NCBI GenBank assembly: GCA_964494395.1 | Contig: CAZBTI010000008.1 | Coordinates: 1-52,279, forward strand | From: an uncultured Acidimicrobiales bacterium | GTDB lineage: Bacteria; Actinomycetota; Acidimicrobiia; Acidimicrobiales; SHLQ01 | Direction: 5' to 3' | Length of the DNA: 52,279 nt | Shown here: positions 3,812-49,254 of the stretch, one piece after another | Position numbering within the stretch: position 1 is the stretch's first letter | How the letters are laid out: every line of letters begins with the position of its first letter | Notes under the pieces: generated by a model | What the model saw: the letters and a program-made list of their open reading frames with translations, nothing else | Database searches by the model: none | What the model was told of the DNA's origin: nothing | Position numbers and translations under genes: made by a program

Positions 3812-4852
3812 TCACGGTTTTGAGTCCCGAGAATCACCAGGCTTCGAGCTGCCCGGTCGACCGCGCAACTTGTCCATGCTGTCGCCGTCTTGCTCGTAGG
3901 CATCAACGATTGCTTGAACAATGGAATGTCGCACGACATCTTTACTACCAAGCCGGACGAAGGCGAGGCCATCGATTCCGCCAAGAATTCGCTCGAGGCC
4001 ACCGAGCCCTGTTCGCCCGCCCTGAACGTCGACCTGGGAAATATCGCCCGTGACCACCGCCCTCGACCCAAAGCCGATTCGGGTCAGGAACATCTTCATC
4101 TGCTCGGGAGTGGTGTTCTGTGCTTCGTCGAGGATGATGAAACTACTGTTGAGGGTTCGGCCACGCATGAACGCGAGCGGAGCAACCTCGACCGTGCCCT
4201 TCTCCATGAGCCGGGTCACGCCTTCGCTATCGGTCATGTCGTACAGCGCGTCGTAAAGCGGGCGCAGATACGGGTCGACCTTCTGCATCAAGTCACCTGG
4301 CAGGAACCCAAGGCGCTCCCCCGCCTCTACGGCTGGCCGGGTGAGGATGATCCGCTCAACTTGACCGGCCTGCAACGCCTGCAGTGCCATTGCGACAGCG
4401 AGCCAACTCTTTCCGGTACCCGCCGGGCCGATACCGAAGGTAATGACGTTGTTCGCTATTGCTTCGAGATAGCGCTGCTGACCAGCGGACTTCGGCCGGA
4501 TCGTCCGGCCGCTCGCCGTCCGAAAGACATTCGAATTGAAGACCTCGCTCGGTCGTTCGTTCGCCTCCACGAGGTCGACCGTCCGTTCAACGATGCGCTT
4601 GTCGAGGCGCTGGCCAGTCTCGAGCATGATCACAAGCTCTTCGACGACCTTGCCAGCTTCGGCGGCTCGGGCTCCATCGATCGATACCTGATTTCCTCGA
4701 ACGTGAAGCGAAGTTGCAGGAAAGCGGTCTTCAATCACCCGTAGGTATTCGTCGCGCTCTCCGAGTAGGCCCGCCATGAGGTGGTTTCCGGCGACATGGA
4801 TAGTGACGGATTGATCTGTCAAAAGGTGCTCGAATACAAGGTGATCGGACAC
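3812..4852 (-). CDS. phoH: PhoH-family ATPase
   Basis: 346 aa, Walker A GPAGTGKSWLAVA, ..IILDEAQN.., GTG start. Confidence 0.92.
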   Translation of the reverse strand: MSDHLVFEHLLTDQSVTIHVAGNHLMAGLLGERDEYLRVIEDRFPATSLHVRGNQVSIDGARAAEAGKVVEELVIMLETGQRLDKRIVERTVDLVEANERPSEVFNSNVFRTASGRTIRPKSAGQQRYLEAIANNVITFGIGPAGTGKSWLAVAMALQALQAGQVERIILTRPAVEAGERLGFLPGDLMQKVDPYLRPLYDALYDMTDSEGVTRLMEKGTVEVAPLAFMRGRTLNSSFIILDEAQNTTPEQMKMFLTRIGFGSRAVVTGDISQVDVQGGRTGLGGLERILGGIDGLAFVRLGSKDVVRHSIVQAIVDAYEQDGDSMDKLRGRPGSSKPGDSRDSKP

Positions 4853-5007: not shown

Positions 5008-5631
5008 GTGGGCGCCGCGGCCTATTTCGACCCCTGTTCTGGCAATCCATTATCGAAGTGGAAGCCAACCGAACGGACCCCAGTGCCCGCAACCCCATCA
5101 TCTTTCGATCGCGAACTTCAGGCTCTTGCTGACGAAGAGCGCCGTGCCAGTAAAGCACGTGCACGCCTCCAGCGCGCCGATCGGAAAATCATGGACGGCT
5201 TGAGCGGATCATTCGTTGGCACCCTGATCGAAATCGCAGAAACTCACGCACCTGTCACAGTGTTGACAAGGACCGAGGCTGCCGTGCGCGGCACCATCGC
5301 AACCGTTGGAACCAACGTCGTTGCCATACGCACTGCTGGCTCATCGTCTGAGGTTCTCATTCGCATCGGAGCGATCGAAGGCCTGTTGGAATCGGGAAGC
5401 GGACACAACCGCAGCAACAGCACAACCAGCACCGGTCCGACCTTTGCTGAACTACTCGATCGCTACAGCGAGACGAACGAACGAATCGCTGCCACGACGA
5501 CAAGTGGAAACACCGTTATGGGCACCGTCCAGCGCGTAGGCGAGGACCAAGTTGTCCTCGCACTAGACGGCAGCGGAGACACCCTAACCGTCCCCACCTC
5601 AGCAATCGACCAGGTGGTGACCAGCCGATGA
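5008..5631 (+). CDS. Hypothetical protein with an internal duplication of a roughly 45-aa beta-rich segment
   Basis: 207-aa ORF with gene-like codon usage. Short basic coiled segment (ELQALADEERRASKARARLQ), then two similar segments: VRGTIATVGTNVVAIRT..VLIRIGAIEGL and VMGTVQRVGEDQVVLALD..LTVPTSAIDQV. No family recognised; start uncertain. Confidence 0.5.
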   Translation: MGAAAYFDPCSGNPLSKWKPTERTPVPATPSSFDRELQALADEERRASKARARLQRADRKIMDGLSGSFVGTLIEIAETHAPVTVLTRTEAAVRGTIATVGTNVVAIRTAGSSSEVLIRIGAIEGLLESGSGHNRSNSTTSTGPTFAELLDRYSETNERIAATTTSGNTVMGTVQRVGEDQVVLALDGSGDTLTVPTSAIDQVVTSR

Positions 5632-5681
5632 CCGCAATGCACTCACCTCACACAGTGCAACAACCTCACACAGTGCAACGG

Positions 5682-5918
5682 CTATTCGGTGGCGACAGCC
5701 TCTGGGTACAGATGCTCCAACTCGCCTGGCGTGATCTGACTCTTGGAAACAAACGAGTCGATCTCGCCCTGCTTGAGGCGAATAACTCGACCAAACCGAT
5801 ACGCGGGCAACTGACCTTCGTCGATGAGCCGGTAGAGCGTGCGGGGCGTGAGTCCCAGCGCGGAGGCCGCTTCTTTAGTGGACAACCAATCGCCGTCTGC
5901 AGATGTCATAGACAGCAA
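5682..5918 (-). CDS. Small helix-turn-helix DNA-binding protein (excisionase/MerR-like HTH_17 type)
   Basis: 78 aa. WLSTKEAASALGLTPRTLYRLIDEGQLPAYRFGRVIRLKQGEIDSFV is a typical excisionase-family HTH. Divergent from the tad operon, with 56 bp between the starts. Confidence 0.75.
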   Translation of the reverse strand: MLSMTSADGDWLSTKEAASALGLTPRTLYRLIDEGQLPAYRFGRVIRLKQGEIDSFVSKSQITPGELEHLYPEAVATE

Positions 5919-5974
5919 TATAACACTCTTTCAATGCTTTTGACCACATTTCGTCTATCTTCAGGAGGTCGGTC

Positions 5975-6649
5975 GTGACCGATGTTCAGCAGCCCGTGCT
6001 TCGTGTAAAGAAGCGACTTCCCAGTGGCCGCGCCGTGCTCGGCGGTCTCTTGGTCTCGCTCTCGGTCGTTGCCCTCCTCGTTGCATCGAGCGTTGGCGAA
6101 GACTCAACGTTCCAAGATGTCGTCGTGGCGAGCCAAGACCTCGCCCCTGGAACCGTCATTGAACCAAGTCATGTCGAACAGGCAAGAATCCGACTGAGCG
6201 AAGATGCAAACTTCGTCATTTCAAGCCCCGAAGCCGTCATTGGCTCGGTAGTCCTTGGACCGGTTGGCCAGTCGGAGTTCCTACAGACATCGAACATCGC
6301 TGCGAGCGGCCCAGACACGCTCCCCTCTGGACTCGCTGAAGTCTCGATCGAGATCGAAGCCAACCGAGCACCGGCAAACATTGCTTCGGGCGAACTCGTT
6401 TCGCTGCTCGCTACCTACGAAGATGGGAACGGCCCACGGACAGCGCTCATTGCTGATCGAGTTGTCGTTCTCTCCTACGACAACGGCAGCGGCGACGACT
6501 TCTCCACCGGCGACACCGTCCTACGTCTCGGCGTAAGTAGTGGTGACATCGCCAGCTCCATCGTCACCGCAGCCATTACTGGCGACATCTCCGTCCTCGG
6601 CGTCACCGGCGCAAACGACGTTCGTATCCCAAGCGAGATCGTCGGATGA
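5975..6649 (+). CDS. cpaB: CpaB/RcpC-like Flp pilus assembly protein (N-terminal TM anchor plus SAF domain)
   Basis: 224 aa. TM segment LGGLLVSLSVVALLVA, then a SAF-like FQDVVVASQDLAPGTVIEPSHV...VIGSVVLGPVGQSEFL. AGGAGG RBS 6 nt before the GTG. ATGA overlap with the next gene. Confidence 0.72.
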   Translation: MTDVQQPVLRVKKRLPSGRAVLGGLLVSLSVVALLVASSVGEDSTFQDVVVASQDLAPGTVIEPSHVEQARIRLSEDANFVISSPEAVIGSVVLGPVGQSEFLQTSNIAASGPDTLPSGLAEVSIEIEANRAPANIASGELVSLLATYEDGNGPRTALIADRVVVLSYDNGSGDDFSTGDTVLRLGVSSGDIASSIVTAAITGDISVLGVTGANDVRIPSEIVG

Positions 6650-7962
6650 AGGACCGTTTCGTAGTCCTCGGAGTCGCCCCGGTACGCCGGGAGTGGTTCG
6701 GTCTCGTCAGCAAGTGGGCCAATGAAGCCGCGCTGCCGATCGAATTCATCAAGTGCATCTCCTCCAACGAGGTCATTTCGAGGCTCGAGTCCGGGCGTCC
6801 TTTCTCTGCAGTCCTTATCGATGCTTCGGCCAACGGCGTTGACCGAGACCTCATCGACCTCGCCCTCTCGGTGGGAGCGAGCCCGATCATCATCGATCAC
6901 GGCCTCGTCGACCGCGACTGGGAAGAACTCGGCGCAACAGCCGTCCTTGCTGAGCACTTCGATCGCGGAGACCTCTCCGCAGTGCTCGAAGACTTCGCCG
7001 CTCCGATCGGACAGGGCGAACAGGCCCCCATGCCGTCGAAGAGCCAGAAGGTCGAGCATTCGAACCTCGGCAAGGTCGTCACCGTGACTGGCGCCGGAGG
7101 CGTTGGCACATCAATCGTGGCTATGGCGTTGGCTCAGGGCCTCGCAGAGAACCACAAGAGACAACCCGTTGCGCTGACCGACATGGCCTTACGGTCCAAC
7201 CAAGCCATGTTGCACGACACCCGCGATGTGGTTCCTGGACTCCTGGAGTTCGTAGAGAGCCACCGCCTTGGCGTACCAAACGAGGCCGAAGCTCTCGGCT
7301 CGATCCACTCCTTTCCCGAGCGCGGATACGACCTGCTCCTTGGCCTGCGCCATGAGCGTGATTGGTCGTCGATACCCGCACGGGCGCTCTCGGCTGCTTG
7401 GACCACGCTGATGAACCGCTACCAAACGACCGTTTGCGATGTCACCGGTGACTTCGACGGCATCGACGAAACCGGCTCAGCCGACCTCGAAGACCGCAAT
7501 CGTCTCTCTCGAATGGCTACACGCCAAGGTGACCTCGTGCTCGTCGTCGGACGCGACGGTGCGTGGGGAATTCACCACCTCATCCGCACCATCCTTTCGC
7601 TAACCGATATCGGCATCGAATCCTCTCGCATCATCCCGGTGATCAACCACGCACCACGAAACCCCCGGGCCAAGGCCGAGATCACCTCGGCGGTAAACGA
7701 GCTGCTCAGTGCTCGCATGTCGACCGCAGACTCAGTCGCACCGGTGGTCTTCATCCCCTACAAGAAGACGCTGGAAGCGACCCTCAGTACTGGTGAACCC
7801 CTTCCGAGTGCAATCACATCGCCACTCGCCTCGTCGGTGCGAGCGCTACTCAACATTGTTGAGCCTCAAGAAGAACTCGTTCTTCCAGAAGACATTGACG
7901 AGCTGGAACCCGTAGCAGTGACTCCAGGGTCGCTCGGAAGCTGGAGTGACATCGATGACTGA
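6646..7962 (+). CDS. CpaE/TadZ-like (actinobacterial Ssd-type) ParA/MinD-family protein with N-terminal pseudo-receiver domain
   Basis: 438 aa. P-loop position reads VTVTGAGGVGTSIVAMALA, a lysine-less deviant Walker A as in the actinobacterial CpaE-like family. Sits immediately upstream of the TadA ATPase. Confidence 0.8.
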   Translation: MKDRFVVLGVAPVRREWFGLVSKWANEAALPIEFIKCISSNEVISRLESGRPFSAVLIDASANGVDRDLIDLALSVGASPIIIDHGLVDRDWEELGATAVLAEHFDRGDLSAVLEDFAAPIGQGEQAPMPSKSQKVEHSNLGKVVTVTGAGGVGTSIVAMALAQGLAENHKRQPVALTDMALRSNQAMLHDTRDVVPGLLEFVESHRLGVPNEAEALGSIHSFPERGYDLLLGLRHERDWSSIPARALSAAWTTLMNRYQTTVCDVTGDFDGIDETGSADLEDRNRLSRMATRQGDLVLVVGRDGAWGIHHLIRTILSLTDIGIESSRIIPVINHAPRNPRAKAEITSAVNELLSARMSTADSVAPVVFIPYKKTLEATLSTGEPLPSAITSPLASSVRALLNIVEPQEELVLPEDIDELEPVAVTPGSLGSWSDIDD

Positions 7963-9337
7963 TATGGCCGAACGCATCACGACCGACGAGTCTCCACTGA
8001 TCGAACTTGAGCAGATGACCCTCGAAGTCGCAAACGATCGCAACATCTCGCCCAACTCCGAGACGGGTAAAGAGCAGCTCCGCTCGATCACCGCAGAGCT
8101 CGTCGAGCAATGGCGTGCCGATTTCCGGCGCGGGATTCGCAACGTCGATCTGACCGAACCAGAGGTCATCATCGAGCGAGCGATCCGGAACCTCACCGGC
8201 TATGGCCCACTCGAATCACTGATCGACGACGACGATGTTTGGGAGATTATGCTGAACGCTCCCGATCAAATTTTCGTCAAGCGCCACATCGGCCCGAGCG
8301 GATATCACAACGAGTCGTTCCACGATGACGATCACGTGCTCCGGACGATGACCCGCATCGTCGATCGTTCGAGCGGCGCCCACCGCGCACTCGACCCAAC
8401 CGCTGGCCTCCAAGACGCTCAACTCGACGATGGAGCTCGCCTCCACATCGTCCACGGAGATATTGCTCGCGGTGGCCACATGATGGTCAACATTCGTAAG
8501 TTCACCGGCATGGCCTTCCGCTCGCTCGACGAGTTGGTCTCCTCCGACACCATCACCACCGAGGCCGCTGCACTGCTCCGAGCATGTGTTGGCGCCAACC
8601 TCTCGATGGTGTTCGCCGGTGTTCCCGGCGCTGGCAAGACAACGCTGCTCTCCTGCTGCGCTGCTGAACTCGACCCTACGCTTCGTGTCGTCGTTGCTGA
8701 GGAAGTCTTCGAGGCCGACGTACCGCTCCCCAACGTTGCGAGCATGCAAACCCGTGGCGGGCGCCCCGATCGTCCAGGTGTCGACCTTCGGACCCTCGTC
8801 GGCGGCTTCCTCCGTATGGCTCCAGACGTCGCCATCGTGGGCGAGGTTCGTGACCGTGAAGCCCTCCCACTCATGATGACCCTCTCGTCGGGCGTCACCG
8901 GCTTTACGACCATCCACGCCGGATCTGCCCGCCAAGCACTGACTCGCCTCCGTTTCGTCTGCCAGCTCGCAGAGACCTCGAGCGATATCCCCATGTCGGC
9001 GCTCAACGACCTCGTTAGCCAAGCAATCGACGTGGTCGTCCACACCGTTCGCACTCCTGAGGGCCCTCGAGTCAATCAGATCGCCTTCGTCGAAGACCTC
9101 AGCTCAGCGGCTGACGGCACGGCCTTCACCATGACCGAAGTCTTCAAGCGCAACCCACACACGGGAACCCTCGACTGGACTGGCCACATGCCAGTCCGAG
9201 CAGCCGAAGAAATGGCAAACGCCGGAATCGATATCCGGTCGGTGCTCCCCAACGAGGCCAAGACCGCTCCAAACAAATCGAGCAAAAAGACAAAGACCTC
9301 CCGTACGTCGGCTCCGAAGCCGGAGAGCAACCCATGA
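7946..9337 (+). CDS. tadA: Tad/Flp pilus secretion ATPase (CpaF/TadA, T2SSE family)
   Basis: 463 aa. Walker A GVPGAGKTTLLS, ..VVAEEVFE.., ..IVGEVRDREA... Alternative ATG starts at 7955 and 7964. Confidence 0.92.
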   Translation: MTSMTDMAERITTDESPLIELEQMTLEVANDRNISPNSETGKEQLRSITAELVEQWRADFRRGIRNVDLTEPEVIIERAIRNLTGYGPLESLIDDDDVWEIMLNAPDQIFVKRHIGPSGYHNESFHDDDHVLRTMTRIVDRSSGAHRALDPTAGLQDAQLDDGARLHIVHGDIARGGHMMVNIRKFTGMAFRSLDELVSSDTITTEAAALLRACVGANLSMVFAGVPGAGKTTLLSCCAAELDPTLRVVVAEEVFEADVPLPNVASMQTRGGRPDRPGVDLRTLVGGFLRMAPDVAIVGEVRDREALPLMMTLSSGVTGFTTIHAGSARQALTRLRFVCQLAETSSDIPMSALNDLVSQAIDVVVHTVRTPEGPRVNQIAFVEDLSSAADGTAFTMTEVFKRNPHTGTLDWTGHMPVRAAEEMANAGIDIRSVLPNEAKTAPNKSSKKTKTSRTSAPKPESNP

Positions 9338-10209
9338 TCCCGCTGCTGATCGCCTTTATTGGCGCCTATGGCGTGCACTTGGTGTACACCGCATACGCCT
9401 TTGATTGGAAGGGCCACCAACCCGGCCCGCAGATCGAACGCAAACAGCGAGCGTCGAGCCAAGAGACGATCTCCCAACTCGGCCTCGGAGATCTCAACCC
9501 CGGCGCCCTCGTAAGTTCGATGCTCGTCGTGGCTTTCCTCGGCTTTGCCGTCGGCACCCTTCTGTTCGGAGGCATCCTTCCTGCGCTCATGGTTGGGCTC
9601 TTCGCTGCAGTATCTCCAGTAGGTGTCGCACGACTCCGCCACGAGCGCCTGATCGAAGCTGCCCATCACGCATGGCCCGGCATCATCGAAGAAATCCGTC
9701 TGCTGACCGGCACGCTCGGAAGATCGATCCCGCAAGCAACGTTTGAAGTCGGGCTTCGCACCCACGATGGGCTGCGTCCAGCATTCGAAGAGGCACACCG
9801 CGAATGGCTCATCTCCACCGATTTCGCTCGCTCTCTCGAGGTACTCAAGCAGCACCTCGGCCACAACACCGCCGACATCGTTGCTGAAACTCTTCTCACC
9901 GCCCACGAACTCGGAGGCGGCGAGGTGGGCAACCGTCTCGGAGCCCTCGCAACCGACCGCATGACCGATCAGCGCCACCGCCGAGACGCGGTTGCCCGAC
10001 AGTCCGGCGTTCGTTTCGCTCGATGGTTCACCCTCATCGTGCCGTTCGGCATGGCACTGACCGGCCTCAGCATCGGTGACGGCAGGGCCGCCTACGGCAC
10101 GCCACTCGGCCAAGCCCTCGTCATGGTTGCTCTGACGCTCATCCTCCTGTGTTGGTTCTGGGCTGGCCGCATCATGGCGCTACCAAAGGAAGAGCGGGTG
10201 TTCGCATGA
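9334..10209 (+). CDS. tadB: Tad pilus inner-membrane platform protein TadB (T2SSF family)
   Basis: 291 aa polytopic protein. ATGA overlap with tadA. Position and topology fit TadB. Confidence 0.8.
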   Translation: MIPLLIAFIGAYGVHLVYTAYAFDWKGHQPGPQIERKQRASSQETISQLGLGDLNPGALVSSMLVVAFLGFAVGTLLFGGILPALMVGLFAAVSPVGVARLRHERLIEAAHHAWPGIIEEIRLLTGTLGRSIPQATFEVGLRTHDGLRPAFEEAHREWLISTDFARSLEVLKQHLGHNTADIVAETLLTAHELGGGEVGNRLGALATDRMTDQRHRRDAVARQSGVRFARWFTLIVPFGMALTGLSIGDGRAAYGTPLGQALVMVALTLILLCWFWAGRIMALPKEERVFA

Positions 10210-11105
10210 TCCGCCTCATCGCCGCAGCCGCCATTCTTCTGTTCGTCGGCACGACCCTCATCCTCAGTGAACTGCGCCCCTTCCGCCATCAAACGTTGGC
10301 TGCTCGGGTCTCGCCATACCTCCCTGGCGGACGTGCCAGCGGCGCTCGCGGCCTTCTTTCGCTCGAGAGCTTCGGCCAACTGCTCGGCCCGCTCTCCGAG
10401 GTCATTGGTTCATCAGCGGCAAAGATCTTTGGGGTTAACGAAGAACTGCCCCGTCGTCTTCGTCGAGTGCACTCGTCGATGGACGAGACCGAGTTCCGCC
10501 TTCGCCAAGTTGGTTGGGCTGCCGCCTCTGCTGCGCTCGTCATCTTGTTCGGCGTCGTGCTCTCGCTTCCGGTTGGACCGGTCGCCATGTTCTCGGTCAT
10601 CGCTCCGCTGCTCGCGTTCCTGATTCTCGAACAGCAACTCGCGGGCGAATCCGATCGGTGGAAGGCCCGCATCTTCCAGGAGCTCCCGATGATCTCCGAA
10701 CAGATCGCCATGCTCCTCGGTTCGGGCTACTCGCTCGGCGCAGCATTGCAGCGGATCAGCGAACGGGGCAGCGGCGCCGTTGCCCAAGACCTCGGCGTGG
10801 TGATGTCTCGTGTCCGGCAGGGCACCAGCGAGCACGCCGCTCTCCAAGAATGGGCTGACACGGTCGACATCGAAGCGGTCTCTCGCCTCGTCAGCATCTT
10901 GGCGCTCAACAAGGAAGCCGGCGACCTCGGCTCGATGGTCGCCGCAGAAGCTCGCAATGTCCGAACCGAATCCCACCGTGAACTCCTCGAAGCCATCGAG
11001 AAGAAGAACCAACAGGTATGGATTCCCGTCACCCTCGCAGCCCTAATCCCCGGCGTGATTCTGATGATGATTCCCTTCGTCAGCGCACTCTCGGCCTTCG
11101 GCTAG
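10206..11105 (+). CDS. tadC: Tad pilus inner-membrane platform protein TadC (T2SSF family)
   Basis: Start moved to the ATG (MIRLIAAAAILLF) that overlaps the tadB stop as ATGA. T2SSF-like core ..ELPMISEQIAMLLGSGYSLGAALQRI.. Confidence 0.8.
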   Translation: MIRLIAAAAILLFVGTTLILSELRPFRHQTLAARVSPYLPGGRASGARGLLSLESFGQLLGPLSEVIGSSAAKIFGVNEELPRRLRRVHSSMDETEFRLRQVGWAAASAALVILFGVVLSLPVGPVAMFSVIAPLLAFLILEQQLAGESDRWKARIFQELPMISEQIAMLLGSGYSLGAALQRISERGSGAVAQDLGVVMSRVRQGTSEHAALQEWADTVDIEAVSRLVSILALNKEAGDLGSMVAAEARNVRTESHRELLEAIEKKNQQVWIPVTLAALIPGVILMMIPFVSALSAFG

Positions 11106-11153
11106 CGAACTCTCCAACGAGAGCCCAAATCTCAACCAAGAGAAAGAAAGAAA

Positions 11154-11396
11154 ATGATGAACAGCACCACTTATGTAGCCCGCACCTTGGGCCAGTACTT
11201 GGGCCTCGCCCAGCACGCCATCGTTACCGGAGTCAAGGATCGTCTTACCGACGACCGTGGCGAAGGAGTCATCTCGATGGCGATCGCCATCCTCGTGATC
11301 GCTGCTCTCGGCGTTGCGATGTTCGCCGTGTTCGAAGGCGTCGGCGAAGCTGCTGGCGACAAGGCAACCGATTCGATCAACAGCATCGGTAGCTGA
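11154..11396 (+). CDS. Putative Flp-type (type IVb, DUF4244-like) prepilin with long leader
   Basis: 80 aa. Leader ends in ..DDRGEG, followed by a hydrophobic helix VISMAIAILVIAALGVAMFAVF. Occupies the position after tadC where flp sits in actinobacterial tad loci. Confidence 0.55.
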   Translation: MMNSTTYVARTLGQYLGLAQHAIVTGVKDRLTDDRGEGVISMAIAILVIAALGVAMFAVFEGVGEAAGDKATDSINSIGS

Positions 11397-11402
11397 TCCA
11401 TC

Positions 11403-11783
11403 GTGAGGAAGCTGACGAGAAGAGCTAACCCCGAGCGGGGGTCTGGAGTGTTCTCCATGGCCATGGGGCTGCTCTTCTTTTTCGGCTTTCTCGTCTTTGC
11501 GATCAACGTCATGTACAACCTCTACGCCACGTCGGTGATCTCGGGCCTCGCGCTCGACGCTGCCCACGATGTCGCAGAGCGAAACGGCTCCGAGGCCCAA
11601 GCGCGAGCAGAGTTCCGAGAACAGGTCGGCAACGATGTCGACTTCGATATCGAGATTCTCGGCGACACCGTGCGGGTCGATGTGCGGTGGGAGACCCGAG
11701 CGATCCTCCCCCAGATCAGCGAGGCTCGCGCTTTTGGTGTCTTGGATCGAAGTTTCGAAGTACGACGAGAACAGCAGCAATGA
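11403..11783 (+). CDS. TadE-like pseudopilin / pilus assembly protein
   Basis: 126 aa. N-terminus ..PERGSGVFSMAMGLLFFFGFLVFAINV is typical of the TadE N-terminal segment. Confidence 0.65.
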   Translation: MRKLTRRANPERGSGVFSMAMGLLFFFGFLVFAINVMYNLYATSVISGLALDAAHDVAERNGSEAQARAEFREQVGNDVDFDIEILGDTVRVDVRWETRAILPQISEARAFGVLDRSFEVRREQQQ

Positions 11784-12271
11784 TGGCCACACCCGTGGAG
11801 CGGTTTCGAGCGATCCTTCGCCAAGTAATCAACGATCGCCGTTACGACGATCGCGGATTCGTTGCGGGCGCAGAGATGCTGATCTTTGGTGTGATCGCGT
11901 TCGTGATGGGGTCGCTGCTCATCATCAACGTGTGGAACGTCGTCGATTCGACACTCGCGGTGTCTGCCGCTGCCCGTGAGGGGGCCCGAACCTACGTTGA
12001 AGGCAATCCCGATACCGCACGTGCCGAGTCCGAGGCTCGCATTCTCCAGGTGATGGATGACTTCAACCGAAGCGACCGCGTCGGTGTCCCGCAGGTTTCG
12101 AACCCTGGTGGCTTCGAGCGTTGCTCGGTCGTGACCGTGACTGCGAGCTACGAGGTTGCACTCGTGACGATCCCGCTCTTTGGCCAATTCGGCACCCTGA
12201 CCGAGGTCGAAGCGAGCCACAGTGGCCGGATCGATGCGTACCGAAGCGGAAACTTTGGCGGTGAATGCTGA
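11780..12271 (+). CDS. TadE-like pseudopilin / pilus assembly protein
   Basis: Start set at the ATGATG overlapping the previous stop (ATGA). ..DDRGFVAGAEMLIFGVIAFVMGSLLIINV.. Confidence 0.65.
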   Translation: MMATPVERFRAILRQVINDRRYDDRGFVAGAEMLIFGVIAFVMGSLLIINVWNVVDSTLAVSAAAREGARTYVEGNPDTARAESEARILQVMDDFNRSDRVGVPQVSNPGGFERCSVVTVTASYEVALVTIPLFGQFGTLTEVEASHSGRIDAYRSGNFGGEC

Positions 12272-12747
12272 CCATGGCGACGCTTCCCAAGCCCATAGGC
12301 GGCAAACGATTCCGATGTCCGGAAACATCCGAACGCGGCTCGACCCTGCTGTTGGCCCCAATCGGGTTTCTGATCGTATTGATGCTGGGCGCCGTCACCC
12401 TTGAAGTGGGTGCATTGCATCTGCGCCAACGTCAACTGCACGATCTCGCAACGACGATCGCCAACGACGCGGCCACTGTTGGCTTCGATGTCGCAGAGTT
12501 CCGCGAAAGCGGGGAGATAACGATCGATCGAGATGAAGCAGGGGGCGTTGTGGAACCGAGCATCGCCATCTCCCCCATCCCCGAGGCCCGCGGCGCTGGA
12601 CTCAATGTCGTCGCTGGCGCACCCCCAACGGTTGAGGTGAGCCTCGAACTGACCCATGAATTCGTGTTGGGCCAGCTCATCTGGGGAGCGTCGACCGAAC
12701 TGACCGCAAGCGGTCAGGCAACCCTCCTACGAACGGGCGAACTATGA
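12265..12747 (+). CDS. TadE/TadG-like pilus assembly protein
   Basis: 160 aa. ..SERGSTLLLAPIGFLIVLMLGAVTLEVG.. 7-nt overlap with the previous gene. Confidence 0.55.
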   Translation: MLTMATLPKPIGGKRFRCPETSERGSTLLLAPIGFLIVLMLGAVTLEVGALHLRQRQLHDLATTIANDAATVGFDVAEFRESGEITIDRDEAGGVVEPSIAISPIPEARGAGLNVVAGAPPTVEVSLELTHEFVLGQLIWGASTELTASGQATLLRTGEL

Positions 12748-13484
12748 GCTCTCTCTCTACCGCTACCGCTACTCCCGATACGCCATCGAAACTGCGAAGC
12801 GTTGCCGTTCTCGCCGCATTACTTGCGGTGATTGCCGGGCTGCACTTCGTTGCCCGATTCGGTCTGAGCGGACCGGCGCAAATGACGCTCGACTCGATTC
12901 GAGAATGGGCCAACGAGCCGGTCGCTGCGATCGCCACAGCGGCCCGATGGACATCGCTGCTACTCACCTACTACCTCGCCGTAGTCGTCGGAGTTACCGT
13001 CATTTTCGGCGACCAGCTCGAAGACTCCCGATTCGAACGATTCGCCCCCTCCTCGGTCACTGGACTCGTGGGCATCCTCCTTGGCACCTCCGCGATCGTT
13101 GTTCCGATGGCGATGCACGAAACTCCAGTACTAGAACAACAGCAACAACCACAGCCGGCAGCTACGTCGCCTCTCACCTTGAATCAACTCGATGACCCGT
13201 TGTCGTTGAGTCGCACACCCGACTCTTCGGATCTCAGCCTCGTGTGGAGCGACACGCGGTCTTCCAACGGTGACGACGCGTGGATCGTAGAAAGTGGCGA
13301 TTCGCTCTGGACAATCGCCCAAGAAACCCTCGAGGACCACTCCAGCGGCGTCTCCTTCTCCGAGGAAGAGATCGCCGACTACTGGCGGACCCTTATCGCA
13401 GCAAACGAAGACCGCCTCGTCGAACCCGGTAACCCAGATTTCATCCTCCCCGGCCAAGAACTGATTCTGCCACCAACCACTTAG
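12744..13484 (+). CDS. Membrane protein with C-terminal LysM peptidoglycan-binding domain
   Basis: 246 aa. About 3 TM segments, a Q/P-rich linker, and a C-terminal LysM-like WIVESGDSLWTIAQETL...ILPGQELILP. 4-nt overlap with the preceding tad gene. Confidence 0.75.
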   Translation: MSSLSTATATPDTPSKLRSVAVLAALLAVIAGLHFVARFGLSGPAQMTLDSIREWANEPVAAIATAARWTSLLLTYYLAVVVGVTVIFGDQLEDSRFERFAPSSVTGLVGILLGTSAIVVPMAMHETPVLEQQQQPQPAATSPLTLNQLDDPLSLSRTPDSSDLSLVWSDTRSSNGDDAWIVESGDSLWTIAQETLEDHSSGVSFSEEEIADYWRTLIAANEDRLVEPGNPDFILPGQELILPPTT

Positions 13485-13504
13485 CGAGCGGGCAGAATGG
13501 GGTC

Positions 13505-13905
13505 GTGGCGCAAGTCCCGATTCTCGATCTTTCTGGCTGCGACGAACCGCCCTCCGCTGAAGTCGTCGGCGAAGTTGCCGATGCCGCAACGAGGTTCGGG
13601 TTCTTCCAAGTCGTCAACCATGGCATTCCCGACTCGCAGATCGAGCAGCTCTGGGCCGCAACTCGGGCATTCTTCGCTGAGCCAATGGAGGTAAAGCGGC
13701 AGATCTCTCGGACCAAGGACAACTCGCGGGGCTACTACGACCGGGAGCTCACGAAGAATGCCCGGGACCAGAAGGAAGTCCTCGACATTGCCCACGTGCC
13801 GTTCCCCGACCGTGCCGATGACGATCCAGCGAAATCCAAAGTCCGGGGAAACCGCGGAAACTGCGACTCGTTGCAGAACAAGTGCGAGGCGCCGGAAGCG
13901 ATGAT
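13505..13905 (+). pseudogene. Truncated 2OG-Fe(II) oxygenase (only the N-terminal DIOX_N-like part)
   Basis: VPILDLS...FGFFQVVNHGIPDSQIEQLWAATRAFFAEPMEVK..SRGYY is a typical N-terminal domain of isopenicillin-N-synthase-like oxygenases. Similarity is lost after about 110 aa. The rest of the ORF runs antisense into bldD, and no HxD...H catalytic core is present. Confidence 0.6.
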
Positions 13906-14451
13906 TTATTGCACGACCTGTGGGACGAAGGTCAGACCGAGAGCGTCGATCCGTGGCGCTGCGCCCTCAATACCGGTACCGAGGATCGCTGCGAGTGCCT
14001 GCAAATCGTCGCGGCGGATCGTGAGGACCCGACCGTTGAAGTCTTGGCGCTGCACCTGAATCATCGTCAGGTAGCGAGACAGCATGTCGGCCTCGGGGCC
14101 GGACAGCTTCTCGAGTTTGGTGAGATCGATCGTGATCGATGCTCCAGAAGCTCGGGTCGGACGATCGCGGAGATCGATCTCGTCGTCCACCTCGACACCG
14201 AAGTCAGGCGCCCCTTCGATGGGCAACAGCTGATCGACAGGCACGCTGTAGAACATCGCGAGCTTGCGGAGGCGGGGAACGCTGATCGCTCGTTCGCCTC
14301 GCTCGTAGGCACCCAGTACAGATGCTTTGAACTCTTGACTTGAATTGGCCTCTACCTCTTGGAGAGAAAGACGCTTCTGCCGACGAATTGCGCGCAGACG
14401 TTCACCCACCTTGCGGCTGTATTGATCCGAGTTGGTTTCGTTGTCGTCCAT
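13906..14451 (-). CDS. bldD: BldD-family transcriptional regulator (XRE HTH plus c-di-GMP-binding C-terminal domain)
   Basis: 181 aa. By-eye match to Streptomyces BldD over both domains: VGERLRAIRRQKRLSLQEVE...VLGAYERGERAISVPRLRKLAMFYSVPVDQLLP and SRYLTMIQVQRQDFNGRVLTIRRDDLQALA. RQD-X8-RRDD matches the RxD-X8-RxxD c-di-GMP signature. Confidence 0.85.
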   Translation of the reverse strand: MDDNETNSDQYSRKVGERLRAIRRQKRLSLQEVEANSSQEFKASVLGAYERGERAISVPRLRKLAMFYSVPVDQLLPIEGAPDFGVEVDDEIDLRDRPTRASGASITIDLTKLEKLSGPEADMLSRYLTMIQVQRQDFNGRVLTIRRDDLQALAAILGTGIEGAAPRIDALGLTFVPQVVQ

Positions 14452-14499
14452 ATTCCCTCACATGCGTGCATGAATCGCACTGCGGCGTCTGTAGACCGC

Positions 14500-14522
14500 T
14501 CACAGTGACGAGTGGGATCACC
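14500..14522. promoter_or_regulatory. Inverted-repeat operator candidate upstream of bldD (AGTGA/TCAC half-sites)
   Basis: TCACAGTGAcgAGTGggaTCACC, 50-70 bp upstream of the bldD start. Resembles the AGTgA(n)TCACc half-sites reported for BldD targets. Confidence 0.3.
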
Positions 14523-14614
14523 ATAGACAGAATTGATCGGCATGGTCCAAACGAAGAAGAACTATTTATTGAAGCGTTCTTCAACAACCTCTGCAAGCCC
14601 CTCCGCCGAGACTG

Positions 14615-15292
14615 CTAGAGCGTCAGACGAACGCCAGCCGCGACCGCTGCTGTCTCGGCGCGGAGCACGCTTGTTCCAAGAGAAATTGCCATCGATGCAG
14701 CATCAACTTCGTCGTCGGACCACCCGCCTTCGGGACCGATCGCGATCGAGCGAACGAGCGGTGTGAGCACCTCTCCACCGAAGTGGGCAATGGCGACATC
14801 GGGTCGAGCCAACCACTCGATGGCAGGCACCACGCCGGTCACTGTCGGCAGGCGAACCTGATGGCTCTGCATTGCGGCCTCGCGTACGATTCGCTTCCAT
14901 CGACTAGTCGCCTTATCGATCTTCGAGTCGTCCCACTTGACGATCGTGCGCTCGCTCCGGAGCACAACGATGTTGAGAACCCCGAGTTCGGTGAGCTTCT
15001 GAATGACCCACTCCGGCTTCGAACTCTTGGTGAGCGAAAACGCGACGGTGCTCTGGGAGTCGGGGCTGGGTTCAGCCACCGTCACAATCTCCCCAGCGGG
15101 CTTGAGCGAACCATCGGAGGAGAATTCGGCGTGTTGCCAACGACCGACACCGTCGCTGACCGTGAGCGGATCGCCATCGCGCATGCGCAAAGACTTGGCG
15201 AGGTGGTCGAGGTCACCCGCTGCAACTTGGAGCACATCGAGCGAGTCGACAAAAACATGCGGCCCCGGGGACCCTGCGAGCGCTTCGCTCAC
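14615..15292 (-). CDS. rsmE: 16S rRNA (uracil1498-N3)-methyltransferase RsmE
   Basis: 225 aa. C-terminal SPOUT motif ..IAIGPEGGWSDDE...LGTSVLRAETAAV.. 4-nt overlap with the dnaJ stop. Conserved position after dnaJ. Confidence 0.88.
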   Translation of the reverse strand: MSEALAGSPGPHVFVDSLDVLQVAAGDLDHLAKSLRMRDGDPLTVSDGVGRWQHAEFSSDGSLKPAGEIVTVAEPSPDSQSTVAFSLTKSSKPEWVIQKLTELGVLNIVVLRSERTIVKWDDSKIDKATSRWKRIVREAAMQSHQVRLPTVTGVVPAIEWLARPDVAIAHFGGEVLTPLVRSIAIGPEGGWSDDEVDAASMAISLGTSVLRAETAAVAAGVRLTL

Positions 15293-16416
15293 TTGAACGC
15301 GGACTTCACCTTGCTGAAGAAGCCATCGTCGGGTGGAGCAACAGACTCTGCACGAAGTTCGGCGAACTGTCGGAGAAGTTCTTCTTGTTCGTCGGTGAGA
15401 TCCGTTGGTGTAGCGACGGCCAGGTTCACGACGAGGTCGCCTCGCCCGCGGCCGTTGACGAATGGAACGCCCTTTGCCCGTAGGCGGAACTTCTTGCCGC
15501 TGTTCGTTCCCGGAGGAACCACGAGTACTTCAGGTTCTTCCAAGGTTGGGATCTCAAGCTCGGCGCCGAGAGCGGCTTGGGCAAAGCCGATTGGCTGATC
15601 GAGAACGAGGTCGTTGCCCTGTCGTGTAAAGATTTCATGTGGCTTGACGTCGATGTGAACGTAGAGATCACCTTGGGCACCACCGCGGGGGCCAACAGCG
15701 CCGCGGCCGGTGAGTCGGAGCGTCGAACCAGAGTCGACGCCAGCGGGCACGTCGACGGTGTAACTGACTTCATCGATCTGTCGGCCTTGCCCTTCACAGG
15801 TGGTGCACGCCTGGTCGATCGTCTCGCCGCGGCCGCTACACGTAGGGCACTGAGCGTTGGTGACCATTTGGCCGAGAATTGATTGACGCACTCGCTGCAC
15901 TTGGCCAGCACCGTCACATTCAGTGCAGCGCGTTGTTCCAGTGCCGGGTTCGGATCCGGTCGCTTCACACGGGGCACACACGACGGCGGTCTTGACGGTG
16001 ACCATCTTCTCGCCACCGAACACCGCGTCGGGTAGATCGAGATGCAGAACGGTCTCGAGATCTTCGCCGGCAGGGGGCCCGGACGGACCTCGACCAGCGC
16101 CGCCACCAAATGGGCTGCCACCTTGACCGAAGAACGTTTCGAAGATGTCGCCGAGGTTCGCTCCGAATGGACCAGCTCCCGGTCCTGCGCCTTGACCTCC
16201 AAGCCCGTCGTCGCCGAAACGGTCGTAGCGCTGGCGTCGCTCGGGGTCGCCGAGCACTTCGTAGGCGTTTGCTACTTCTTTGAACTTGGCTTCGGCTTCG
16301 GCATCGTCGGGGTTCTGGTCCGGATGATATTTCCGGGCCATTGAACGGTAGGCCTTCTTGATCTCTGCTTCGGTCGCCTGCTTGGAGACGCCGAGGATGT
16401 CGTAGTGTTCGGCCAT
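15289..16416 (-). CDS. dnaJ: Molecular chaperone DnaJ
   Basis: 375 aa. J-domain with YHPDQNP, G-rich linker, and four CxxCxGxG zinc-finger repeats (CAPCEATG, CTECDGAG, CPTCSGRG, CTTCEGQG). Confidence 0.96.
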   Translation of the reverse strand: MAEHYDILGVSKQATEAEIKKAYRSMARKYHPDQNPDDAEAEAKFKEVANAYEVLGDPERRQRYDRFGDDGLGGQGAGPGAGPFGANLGDIFETFFGQGGSPFGGGAGRGPSGPPAGEDLETVLHLDLPDAVFGGEKMVTVKTAVVCAPCEATGSEPGTGTTRCTECDGAGQVQRVRQSILGQMVTNAQCPTCSGRGETIDQACTTCEGQGRQIDEVSYTVDVPAGVDSGSTLRLTGRGAVGPRGGAQGDLYVHIDVKPHEIFTRQGNDLVLDQPIGFAQAALGAELEIPTLEEPEVLVVPPGTNSGKKFRLRAKGVPFVNGRGRGDLVVNLAVATPTDLTDEQEELLRQFAELRAESVAPPDDGFFSKVKSAFK

Positions 16417-16417
16417 T

Positions 16418-17407
16418 TCAGCCCTCGCTCAATCTTTTTCCAAGCGATTGGGAGACCACTGCTACTGCGGCCATCGCGTGGGGGTAATTCATGCGTGTAG
16501 GTCCTAGCAGGCCAATCGTTCCAGTCTGATTGCCCTCTGCAGAATACGGCGCGACGACGAGAGAACAATCAGCGAGTGGATCTACACCGGTCTCTTCGCC
16601 AATGGCGACGGACATGCCGCGTCCAATGACGTCTCTGAGGAGCGTCACGACGACCAACTGCGTTTCGAGGAGCGAGAGAACTTCGCGCATTGTTTCGGCT
16701 GCGGCGAAGTTGGAAACGCTCGAACGACCCCCGACGTAGACATCGCCGGCGGTCTCTTGTGTGGTGAGGACGGCACGTGCGGATTCAACAAAGCGATCCG
16801 CCTGTGCATTCCCACTCGGTTGCGGTGCCGCTTCGTTACCGATGCTGCGTCCCACCATCGCTGCGCTGAGATGGCCGTTCGCAATGGCGAGCGTGGCCTC
16901 ATCTGCCTCGTCGACAGCTTCGATCGTGCACTTCTCGACCGTGCCGTCGGAGAGCACCATGACCGCGAGCACCACCGATGGTGCGAGCTGTACCAACTGC
17001 ACACTCTTGACGGTCGCGTTGTCCTTATCTGGTGCCACGACCACCGAGGTCACGCCAGTCATCTCCGACAGAAGCTTGGATGTCTTGCCGAGCATGCCTT
17101 CGATTTCGCCGTGCGCGTGATCGAAGAAGTCGGCGACCCGTTCGCTCTCGCTGCGGTCGAGGTTCGGTTCAGAGATGCCATCGACGAACGCTCGGTAGGC
17201 CTTGTCGGTTGGGACACGTCCGGCGCTCGTGTGTGGCTGAGTGAGATATCCCTGCTGGTCGAGTAGTGCCAGCTCGTTTCGGATTGTCGCCGAGGAGACT
17301 TCGAGGCTGATCACGTTCGTTACCGCGGTCGAACCCACGGGTTCCGCGGTTTCGATATACGTCTCTACGACAGCCCTCAAAATGGCCATCTTCCGGTCAT
17401 CCAACAT
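16418..17407 (-). CDS. hrcA: Heat-inducible transcription repressor HrcA
   Basis: Start placed at MLDDRKMAILRAVVETYIETAEPVGS (canonical HrcA N-terminus). The ORF is open 17 codons further upstream. Confidence 0.92.
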   Translation of the reverse strand: MLDDRKMAILRAVVETYIETAEPVGSTAVTNVISLEVSSATIRNELALLDQQGYLTQPHTSAGRVPTDKAYRAFVDGISEPNLDRSESERVADFFDHAHGEIEGMLGKTSKLLSEMTGVTSVVVAPDKDNATVKSVQLVQLAPSVVLAVMVLSDGTVEKCTIEAVDEADEATLAIANGHLSAAMVGRSIGNEAAPQPSGNAQADRFVESARAVLTTQETAGDVYVGGRSSVSNFAAAETMREVLSLLETQLVVVTLLRDVIGRGMSVAIGEETGVDPLADCSLVVAPYSAEGNQTGTIGLLGPTRMNYPHAMAAVAVVSQSLGKRLSEG

Positions 17408-17451
17408 CGCCTTACAGGTTACAAGGCTGCGCCCACGTCTATGGTCGAGCC

Positions 17452-17868
17452 ATGACAACTACGCCGCTCAACCAACGCATCTCGATCATCACCATCGCGG
17501 TCACCGACCTCGACGAGTCGCGGACCTTCTATAACTCGGCCTTTGGCTGGACCCCCGACGAGGCAGATGAGGAAGAAGCGGCCAACATTGCTTTCTATTC
17601 GATGAATGGATTCAAGTTCGCGTTGTATCCGCTCGCGAAGTTTGCCGAAGAACACGGCGGCGAGGTCGCTCCGCCCTCGGGATTCACCCTGGCGTACAAC
17701 GTCAATACAGAAGTTGAGGTCGACGCGCTGTTCGCCCGTTTCGCAGCACACGACGTGACGGTGTTGAAGGCACCGGAGAAGGTCTTCTGGGGCGGGTACT
17801 CGGGCTACATTTCCGGCCCGAGTGGCGAACAATGGGAGATCGCCTACAACCCGTACTTGTCGGTCTAG
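17452..17868 (+). CDS. VOC (glyoxalase/bleomycin-resistance) family protein
   Basis: 138 aa. ..ISIITIAVTDLDESRTFY..FGW.. and a C-terminal ..GYSGYISGPSGEQWEIAYNP.. typical of the VOC fold. Confidence 0.8.
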   Translation: MTTTPLNQRISIITIAVTDLDESRTFYNSAFGWTPDEADEEEAANIAFYSMNGFKFALYPLAKFAEEHGGEVAPPSGFTLAYNVNTEVEVDALFARFAAHDVTVLKAPEKVFWGGYSGYISGPSGEQWEIAYNPYLSV

Positions 17869-34578: not shown

Positions 34579-35415
34579 ATGAGTGATTCAGTAGGTCAAT
34601 ACCTTAACGAAATCGGACTCGTTCCTCTCCTGACTGCTCAGGAAGAGCGGGATCTGTCCAAAATCATCGAACGTGGCGCCGAAGCCCGTGCGAAAATGGA
34701 AGACGGCGAAACCGGCCGCGACCTCGGTCGTTCGATCCGTGAGGCAGCCGCTGCCAAGGATCGTTTCATCCGCGCAAACCTTCGCCTCGTCGTCAGCGTC
34801 GCCCGCCGTTATCCGCTGCCTCCTGGCATGGAGCTGCTCGACCTGATCCAAGAAGGCAACCTCGGTCTTGAGCACGCTGTCGACAAGTTCGACTGGCGCA
34901 AGGGCTTCAAGTTCTCGACGTACGCAACGTTCTGGATCCGCCAGGCAATCGGTCGTGCCCTCGATCAGAAGGCCAGCCTCGTTCGCCTCCCCGGTGACCG
35001 CTCGGCAAGCCTTCGTGCCGCTCTCCGCCAGGTTTCTGGTGACGGAGACGAACTCGATGAAGAGCACGCACGCCTCCACCGCCTGACCACCCCAACTTCT
35101 CTCGACCGCACCATCGGCGACGACGACTCGAACGAACTCGTCGACCTCCTCCCAGACGCAAAGCCTGGGCCGGAGGCCGAGGTGATGGCACGAGCTGAAG
35201 AAGAGATGGTCACTGGCCTTCTCGACATTCTCGACCCACGGGCTCGTTACGCAGTCGAGCAGCGCTTCGGACTGCACGACGGACGCAAGCGCAGCTACCG
35301 CGAAGTCGGGGAAGAACTGGGTGTCACAGCAGAAGCAGCCCGCCGCTTGGTAAAGCGTGCGGTCAGCTCGGTGCGTGAGCACGCTGCTGAGAAAGCAGCT
35401 TCACCAGCTGCGTAG
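34579..35415 (+). CDS. RNA polymerase sigma-70 family factor (group 2/SigB-like, no region 1.1)
   Basis: 278 aa. Regions 2.1-2.4 ANLRLVVSVARRY...IQEGNLGLEHAVDKFDWRKGFKFSTYATFWIRQAI. Region 4.2 YREVGEELGVTAEAARRLVKRAV. Confidence 0.9.
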   Translation: MSDSVGQYLNEIGLVPLLTAQEERDLSKIIERGAEARAKMEDGETGRDLGRSIREAAAAKDRFIRANLRLVVSVARRYPLPPGMELLDLIQEGNLGLEHAVDKFDWRKGFKFSTYATFWIRQAIGRALDQKASLVRLPGDRSASLRAALRQVSGDGDELDEEHARLHRLTTPTSLDRTIGDDDSNELVDLLPDAKPGPEAEVMARAEEEMVTGLLDILDPRARYAVEQRFGLHDGRKRSYREVGEELGVTAEAARRLVKRAVSSVREHAAEKAASPAA

Positions 35416-49193: not shown

Positions 49194-49254
49194 AGTGAGT
49201 GAGGGTAGACCGTTACAGGCTTTTAGGACGAACTTTGACTACTTTGAGTAGTTT

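Follow-up and report, generated by a model that had tools for sequence, protein, structure and literature searches.

The minus strand of contig CAZBTI010000008.1, from an uncultured Acidimicrobiales bacterium, carries at positions 13906..14451 a gene for a BldD-like transcription regulator, which we analysed together with the surrounding stretch of 52,279 nucleotides (referred to here as the window). BldD is the textbook example of a transcription factor that is dimerised by a tetramer of cyclic di-GMP (c-di-GMP), and to our knowledge all studies of it concern sporulating actinomycetes. Acidimicrobiia form an abundant class of bacteria, most of them uncultured, that live in marine, freshwater, soil and wastewater habitats. 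The original prediction for this locus had called the gene product a BldD orthologue with an intact c-di-GMP signature, and had proposed that it may link c-di-GMP to a neighbouring Tad pilus operon. Our results place the protein in a distinct Acidimicrobiia subfamily of the broad BldD family and make it a probable c-di-GMP-dependent autorepressor; they do not support the link to the pilus.

A BldD-like gene and its domain architecture

The open reading frame (ORF) starts with ATG, 4 nt downstream of a Shine-Dalgarno sequence (GAGGG, 14455-14459), and encodes 181 amino acids, which confirms the coordinates, length and peptides originally given for it. A DNA-binding domain of the XRE helix-turn-helix (HTH) type occupies residues 16-75 (14227..14406, minus strand), where the Pfam families HTH_31 (6.7e-8) and HTH_3 (1.3e-7) both exceeded the gathering score. 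It is followed by an interdomain linker (residues 78-105; 14137..14220), delimited from alignments and the structural model, and by a BldD-like C-terminal domain that is predicted to bind c-di-GMP (residues 106-170; 13942..14136). In the latter, the Pfam family BldD-like_C (PF21179) matched residues 106-158 with an E-value of 6e-19 and 68.1 bits, compared with a cutoff of 27. Searches against PDB sequences returned the DNA-binding domain of BldD (2EWT/4OB4, E 1.3e-17) as well as its C-terminal domain in both the free and the c-di-GMP-bound form (2MC4, 4OAZ, 4OAY and 5KHD, ~2e-8). Judged from these matches, the similarity of the protein to BldD is far above chance.

An AlphaFold2 (AF2) model, for which a 47-sequence alignment was the input, contained two confident domains with a predicted local distance difference test score (pLDDT) of ~85-93 (~87-93 in the XRE HTH domain). 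The linker was of low confidence over residues 79-102, with pLDDT <50 at 79-89 and 96-102. When this model was submitted to Foldseek, the top 15 matches were all BldD structures. The N-terminal domain superposed on 2EWT/4OB4 with a template modelling (TM) score of 0.95, a root-mean-square deviation (rmsd) of 0.6 Å and 54% identity, and the C-terminal domain superposed on the c-di-GMP complexes 4OAZ/5KHD with a TM score of ~0.80, an rmsd of ~2 Å and ~34% identity. The three features of the BldD family in the broad sense, namely an N-terminal XRE HTH domain, a BldD-like C-terminal domain and a flexible linker between them, were all found, the linker being ~16 residues longer than that of Streptomyces BldD. 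By sequence and predicted fold, the 181-amino-acid protein is a two-domain BldD homologue, and the match to BldD in both regions that had been noticed originally was borne out by Pfam, by the PDB sequences and by the fold. The linker also holds a clade-conserved segment, IDLxDRPxR, whose sequence is reminiscent of the C-terminal domain's first strand (ITIDLTKL) and which is predicted to be disordered.

Conservation of the c-di-GMP signature

The C-terminal domain carries the bipartite RxD-X8-RxxD signature as R135-Q-D137 / FNGRVLTI / R146-R-D-D149 (14005..14049, minus strand), and the codons CGC CAA GAC ... CGC CGC GAC GAT were read at 14049-14005 on the minus strand, just where the motif had been reported. 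In the alignments, QRQDFNGRVLTIRRDDL of the window protein lies in register with QRGDYNGKVLSIRQDDL of the BldD C-terminal domain structures over both signature halves. R135/D137/R146/D149 thus correspond to R114/D116/R125/D128 of Streptomyces, the motif arginines and aspartates being correctly placed against the characterised BldDs, and the four columns are invariant across the Acidimicrobiia proteins and the genuine BldDs. This signature is conserved in all the BldD homologues examined in the Cell (PMC4151990) and Nucleic Acids Research papers.

We searched a clade set of 201 sequences (the window protein, 80 genomic loci and 120 protein clusters) with the regular expression R.D.{8}R..D. The results showed that the signature was matched in 201/201 sequences with a fixed X8 spacing. 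Motif 1 was RQD in every one of them, and the x positions of motif 2 varied (RRDD in 113, RAND in 25 and RAQD in 10, followed by RQDD, RHDD, RRED, RVND and others). Four invariant contact residues combined with drifting x positions form the pattern expected of ligand contacts, and the strict retention of these guanine-specifying residues in the clade would be best explained by ligand binding. Lys/Arg84 of BldD contacts the c-di-GMP phosphates; the near-invariant R100 of the window protein aligns with it but is a tentative equivalent, as an insertion of 5 residues follows it. Proteins related to c-di-GMP turnover are encoded in related Acidimicrobiia, namely a PAS-GGDEF protein in locus L072 and an EAL protein in locus L053, and the c-di-GMP-binding protein RsiG has been reported in 3/4 Acidimicrobiales (PMC8325347).

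A whole-library HMMER search extended the comparison to the wider BldD-like family, comprising 2082 representatives at 50% clustering. Here, the exact motif was missing in 36 of the 119 full-length representatives; some of these 36 were frameshifted or chimeric, and others had a decayed motif 1 (e.g. RHGFSG, RQSFDR and RRAFHG). This loss in the wider family indicates that the BldD-like fold does not force the motif. Several representatives (P0261, P0275, P0287, P0289, P0308, P0317 and others) were full-length and had lost motif 1 with an R..D-like motif 2 kept. From their sequences, the motif-1-less members may be c-di-GMP-independent or dimer-binding relatives.

The promoter region and BldD boxes

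The own promoter and leader of the BldD-like gene occupy 14452..14614 (minus strand). In the clade alignment of upstream regions, this stretch contained a -35-like hexamer TTGGAC (14545-14550), a -10-like hexamer TATGGT (14520-14525), a clade-conserved element TCACTGTGAGCGG (14496-14508) and a second element CGCCGCAGTGCGA (14475-14487), all on the minus strand. The pattern conserved in the window's own clade reads TTGGAC, then TA(T/G)GGT, then CCACTGTGnGCG(T/G)T and, farther on, CGCACAGTGCGA. The element TCACTGTGAGCGG agrees with Streptomyces box 2 at 9/13 positions. A simple scan for sigma-70 promoters and intrinsic terminators around the gene gave no match, nor did Rfam in the leader region. 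We also considered whether the inverted CACTGTG...CAGTG elements form a hairpin in the leader RNA and rejected this reading (z-score -1.1, not significant).

We scanned the 200 bp preceding the gene, in the window as well as in the 80 loci, with the strict Streptomyces BldD-box consensus TNACNCWGNGTNA. A box with at most one mismatch was present in 24/81 upstream regions, compared with 2.3% of shuffles and 1.0% of random same-locus windows, and the relaxed published box TNAC(N)5GTNA was perfect in 13/81 regions versus 1.6 expected. Over 1.28 Mb, the box sites formed a single peak at -400..0 of the start codon (25 sites, 0.78/kb versus a background of ~0.05/kb), an enrichment of ~15-fold directly upstream of the gene across the 80 loci. 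In several loci, the box lay directly 3' of a -10-like TAGGGT (e.g. tagggtcgccgtTCACGGTGCGTAA), which is the position where a repressor would occlude the promoter; the relative L060 (TCACGCAGCGTGA) is an example of a promoter with a canonical box, and L012 is another. As a positive control, the same scan recovered the two adjacent 1-mismatch boxes, TCACTCTACGTAA and TCACAGTGAGTTA, of Streptomyces bldD promoters. These data are good in silico evidence that the clade kept a BldD-like DNA specificity together with autoregulation, and the box enrichment suggests c-di-GMP-dependent autorepression. For the window organism itself, whose own box is degenerate, we infer autoregulation.

Box density in the whole window was also examined. 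The strict box had 5 matches at ≤1 mismatch compared with 8.7 expected, and the relaxed box had 4 perfect matches compared with 7.2 expected. The promoter of a nearby LysM-domain gene was rejected as a second local target, because the slight excess at +800..+1600 consisted of scattered sites inside long ORFs. A BldD-box-like palindrome, TCACTGTGCGTGA, was seen at 49186-49198, between a -10-like TACCCT and the GTG start of a gene for a signal-peptide protein of 1116 amino acids with four RTX repeats and a GH9 domain (45843-49193, minus strand). Its geometry is that found at the promoter of the BldD-like gene, and it is a single match at a chance-level density. Relatives of this RTX/GH9 protein in one metagenome scan were 33-46% identical, lacked the N-terminus, had no promoter-proximal sites and were too distant for conservation to be judged.

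Gene neighbourhood

Upstream of the BldD-like gene and on the same strand, Pfam identified rsmE (14615-15292), dnaJ (15289-16416) and hrcA (16418-17458). Among the 75 loci with enough flank, hrcA and dnaJ were same-strand upstream neighbours in 75/75 and rsmE in 74/75, and in these 74 loci rsmE directly adjoined the BldD-like gene. Downstream, phoH was located within 2.5 kb in 13/47 loci with at least 9.5 kb of flank, and in L052, L065, L071, L074 and L076 the phoH match began 600-710 bp after the BldD-like start codon, i.e., just past the stop. In the window, phoH is at 3812-4852, and a block from orf5008 to the LysM gene plus an oxygenase remnant (5008-13900, opposite strand) stands between it and the BldD-like gene; the closest relatives, L002 and L007-L009, share this phoH/tad-block/BldD-like arrangement. 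The BldD-like gene is a fixed member of a class-wide housekeeping block, hrcA-dnaJ-rsmE-(bldD-like)-phoH. The window as a whole has a uniform GC content of ~60% and represents core chromosome, with obg, proB, murJ, pspA, a DAHP synthase gene, nadD, comEC, holA, lepA, hrcA, dnaJ, rsmE, phoH, corC and era. As originally stated, it offers no sporulation context (none found among the ~37 ORFs scanned); genes of the bld and whi sets were likewise absent from it.

In Streptomycetaceae (L081-L083), bldD is flanked by pyrR-pyrB-pyrC-carAB and nusB-efp. That context was absent at all 80 Acidimicrobiia loci, which instead have hrcA-dnaJ-rsmE, the LysM gene and phoH. These neighbourhoods contradict the statement in the literature that orthologues of bldD 'always show ... 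local synteny' (PMC4255298).

The gap between the LysM gene and the BldD-like gene holds the oxygenase fragment that had been predicted there, a truncated 2-oxoglutarate-dependent oxygenase remnant with DIOX_N only (13505..13870, end approximate, plus strand; Pfam DIOX_N 2.8e-24, residues 4-110). The tail of its ORF runs by chance antisense into the BldD-like gene. None of the 80 related loci contained an equivalent of the fragment, and tblastn matches to it in relatives were rejected as merely an antisense reading of the BldD-like gene.

The Tad pilus cluster

A Tad/Flp-type pilus cluster with a terminal LysM gene lies on the plus strand at 5975..13484 (Pfam). It encodes CpaB-like SAF and CpaE-like proteins, the CpaF ATPase, TadB, TadC, a Flp-like pilin and TadE/G-like proteins, and no prepilin peptidase gene was recognised within it. 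The Flp-like pilin candidate (80 amino acids, …DDRGEGVISMAIAILVIAALG…; 11154-11396, plus strand) had no Pfam or NCBIfam match, and the TadE/G-like ORFs after it had weak or no match to their families. The LysM-domain gene (12744-13484, plus strand), the last plus-strand gene of the block, is convergent with the BldD-like gene across a measured gap of 421 bp, in agreement with the ~420 bp estimated originally. A LysM gene is the convergent neighbour of the BldD-like gene in 38/66 loci, including many without tad genes (seen in L010-L061), and it may not be a tad component.

Taking at least two of cpaF, tadB and tadC within 10 kb as Tad presence, we found Tad genes downstream in 14/47 loci with enough flank. 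Inserted variably between phoH and the BldD-like gene, the cluster lies outside the conserved context of the regulator. Because the Tad block sits in a variable slot of a conserved backbone, the adjacency appears to be positional, not regulatory. Consistent with this, the best strict-box matches in the two tad promoter regions (5919-5974 and 11106-11153) had 2 and 3 mismatches, respectively, and no box was present at any tad promoter of the 16 Tad-carrying loci, in which the four scattered box-like matches fell either inside tad coding sequence (two) or >1 kb from tad genes (two). There was also no second peak of box sites within 10 kb on either side of the BldD-like gene.

The tad genes have a regulator gene of their own at hand. 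A gene for a 78-amino-acid HTH_17/excisionase-family regulator (5682..5918, minus strand; Pfam HTH_17 1.1e-13, NCBIfam 'excise' 1.7e-14) is divergent from the first tad gene, and the 56-bp promoter region common to both carries the element CTTTCA-N5/6-CTTTGA. Both the gene and the element are kept in six relatives. The HTH_17 protein is likely a dedicated local regulator of tad, with CTTTCA-N5/6-CTTTGA as its putative operator.

Close by, at 5645..5679 (plus strand), lies a perfect 18-bp tandem duplication, ACCTCACACAGTGCAACA, whose two copies contain the box-like 13-mer TCACACAGTGCAA (1 mismatch) at 5648-5660 and 5666-5678. The pair falls in the interval across which orf5008 and the HTH_17 gene face each other with their 3' ends, and the duplication is absent from the six syntenic relatives L001, L002 and L006-L009. 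The TCACACAGTGCAA pair was thus rejected as a conserved operator, being a window-only duplication between two 3' ends, and although it might bind the BldD-like protein in this one organism, it is no evidence of a conserved circuit. The evidence that had been put forward for a link between the BldD-like protein and the Tad pilus is proximity, which is not to be read as regulation, and the link is not supported.

Discussion

We consider that the BldD-like protein is probably the Acidimicrobiia version of a BldD-family repressor that is dimerised by c-di-GMP and represses its own gene. In this model, each monomer would comprise the XRE DNA-binding domain, a long flexible linker and a small helical C-terminal domain. 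When c-di-GMP is abundant, two monomers would be bridged via their C-terminal domains by the nucleotide, held on R135/D137 (motif 1) and R146/D149 (motif 2), and the tethered XRE domains of the dimer would bind a pseudo-palindrome of the TNAC-N5-GTNA type and repress transcription. Its own promoter would be one target, leading to autorepression at high c-di-GMP, and the remaining regulon would lie elsewhere in the genome. The model draws on the observed architecture, fold, register and conservation of the motif, class-wide box enrichment, synteny and lack of boxes at tad promoters; from them we infer c-di-GMP binding, its stoichiometry, repression and autoregulation in this organism.

Several points weigh against this reading. 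The AF2 model is not independent evidence, since BldD homologues were in its alignment and BldD structures are public. The protein shares 44% identity over 149 amino acids with a genuine, source-named Streptomyces BldD (P0122), and the NCBIfam BldD equivalog NF050110 gives it 139.7 bits, where the curated cutoff is 250. Residues 38-41, immediately ahead of the recognition helix, read SQEF versus QGRW in BldD, and only R100 is available to match the phosphate contact Lys/Arg84, being set apart from the C-terminal domain's first strand by an insertion of 5 residues. On the DNA side, the best box match in the window's own upstream region is TCACTGTGAGCGG, a degenerate site with 3 mismatches, and the clade-specific element CACTGTGnGCG was rejected as a regulon motif, having 5 matches in the window compared with 6.1 expected. 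Finally, no GGDEF or EAL protein was found among the ~37 ORFs scanned in the 52-kb window.

Some of these differences also define where the protein belongs. Among sporulating actinomycetes, BldDs reach 77-99% identity to S. venezuelae BldD, and 95-100% in the DNA-binding domain (PMC4151990), a level that the window protein does not reach (54% in the DNA-binding domain and ~34% in the C-terminal domain). On a mixed alignment, 19/19 Actinomycetia BldDs passed NF050110 (301-308 bits) and 28/28 Acidimicrobiia proteins failed it (139-147 bits). The closest homologues (71-96% identity) all came from metagenome-assembled genomes of Acidimicrobiales/Acidimicrobiia, and the Acidimicrobiia C-terminal tail differs from that of BldD and is shorter. 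The HTH residues common to the window protein and BldD are K42, A43, V45, G47, Y49-G52 and R54. Overall, the 44% identity, the failed equivalog cutoff and the different synteny indicate a distinct BldD-like subfamily; as far as sequence comparison can tell, the protein is a member of the BldD family in the broad sense and not BldD sensu stricto. The original term 'BldD orthologue' therefore holds insofar as this is a true two-domain homologue with an intact signature, but it is too strong as a functional label for a protein with this degree of divergence, a longer linker, another tail and another neighbourhood.

A question raised by this divergence is whether the protein still uses c-di-GMP at all. 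It could be a BldD-fold regulator in which the motif is structural or serves another ligand or partner and in which the IDLxDRPxR linker mediates a different dimerisation or partner interaction. The low identity, overall as well as in the structure alignment of the C-terminal domains, and the failed equivalog cutoff would fit this, as would the clade-specific linker segment, the different tail, the uncertain Lys84 equivalent and the evident loss of motif 1 in some members of the wider family, which presumably work differently. Nevertheless, we regard it as decidedly unlikely, given that the four guanine-specifying residues are invariant in 201/201 sequences while the x positions vary around a fixed X8 spacing, that the modelled C-terminal fold matches the ligand-bound structures, and that c-di-GMP enzymes as well as another c-di-GMP effector exist in the class. 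Another explanation, which is compatible with c-di-GMP-dependent autorepression, ties the regulator to the hrcA-dnaJ-rsmE operon, either by co-transcription or through control of a heat-shock or ribosome-maturation response instead of a developmental or surface programme. The near-universal linkage to these three genes speaks for it, and the interval between rsmE and the BldD-like gene showed no terminator-like site. However, the 163-bp intergenic region with its clade-conserved -35/-10-like elements argues for a separate promoter, and the single peak of box-like sites lies immediately 5' of the BldD-like gene, not in the hrcA promoter region. Moreover, the block is part of a stable housekeeping array, lepA-hrcA-dnaJ-rsmE...phoH-corC-era, in which linkage need not mean a common function, and we think that this explanation is unlikely to hold.

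That the protein couples c-di-GMP directly to the Tad operon next to it, or to adhesion genes, through operators at or near tad appears very improbable. Its appeal lies in the physical proximity in the window, with Tad genes ≤10 kb downstream in 14/47 related loci, and in the two identical 1-mismatch 13-mers, 18 bp apart at 5648-5678 and ~300 bp from the first tad gene, which recall the two adjacent boxes carried by real bldD promoters; the box-like site at the start of the secreted RTX/GH9 gene also counts in its favour. There is also a precedent, since a route from c-di-GMP to type IV pili has been documented in Actinomycetota, non-sporulating ones included, in the form of RsiG-WhiG (PMC8325347, PMC12871210), but that route does not involve BldD, and our literature search found no paper that links BldD to pili. 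Against these points stand the convergent orientation, the lack of adjacency in most loci, where phoH or the LysM gene is found instead, and the distribution of boxes, which are at or below chance in the window, missing from the tad promoters and without a second peak near the regulator. The tandem repeat between two 3' ends has no equivalent in the syntenic relatives, and the tad operon possesses a divergently encoded HTH_17 regulator and a promoter element of its own, both conserved.

The preferred reading of a c-di-GMP-dimerised autorepressor has several implications. A bldD orthologue in Acidimicrobium, the great age of the gene (PMC4255298), the Pfam family BldD-like_C and the conservation of the signature in BldD homologues were already known. 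What is new here is the strict signature across the class, the distinct long-linker subfamily, the fixed hrcA-dnaJ-rsmE linkage, the predicted BldD-box autoregulatory sites retained across the class, and the negative answer on the Tad link. The signature in 201/201 clade members, taken together with the class-wide upstream boxes, suggests that the nucleotide switch and the DNA specificity both predate sporulation. The BldD-like gene and its boxes thus offer a concrete handle on c-di-GMP control in Acidimicrobiia. A far more speculative proposal, to which we give little credence, is that the BldD-(c-di-GMP) switch is an ancient class-wide effector of non-sporulating Acidimicrobiia whose ancestral job was in surface or extracellular functions and not in development, which would here include the Tad block (tandem boxes at 5648-5678) and/or the RTX/GH9 protein (49186-49198). 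If true, such a surface role would show the function of BldD before sporulation, in parallel to the published re-wiring of RsiG-WhiG.

Comparison with known systems

Generic XRE/SinR-type repressors (C.AhdI, DdrO and SinR) have the N-terminal HTH fold in common with the window protein, but they dimerise via protein-protein contacts and are without a BldD-like C-terminal domain and nucleotide signature. The RsiG-(c-di-GMP)-WhiG system is another c-di-GMP effector system present in Acidimicrobiales, and for the non-sporulating Rubrobacter and other genera its control over type IV pilus genes has been predicted or demonstrated (PMC8325347, PMC12871210). It consists of an anti-sigma factor and a sigma-28 factor unrelated to BldD, and its c-di-GMP ligand is a dimer instead of a tetramer. 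The sole sigma factor gene of the window (34579-35415) was considered as WhiG and rejected, being RpoD/SigB-like.

Within the same bacterial class, a 'convincing orthologue' of bldD has been described in Acidimicrobium (A. ferrooxidans), and very early actinobacteria were inferred to have had the gene already (Chandra and Chater 2014, PMC4255298). Motif, operators and gene neighbourhood in the Acidimicrobiia are not analysed there, and our comparison with this orthologue relies on its published description.

The reference system is the BldD of Streptomyces (S. coelicolor SCO1489 and S. venezuelae BldD; 2EWT, 4OB4, 4OAZ, 4OAY and 5KHD; NF050110). Unlike it, the protein described here comes from an uncultured Acidimicrobiales bacterium, with no sporulation genes in the window. 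Like it, the protein combines an XRE domain, a flexible linker and a helical C-terminal domain with R/D/R/D in register, and both predicted folds match. The likeness extends to the promoter, where many clade members carry a BldD-box-like pseudo-palindrome 5' of the gene, as in the autoregulated bldD of Streptomyces.

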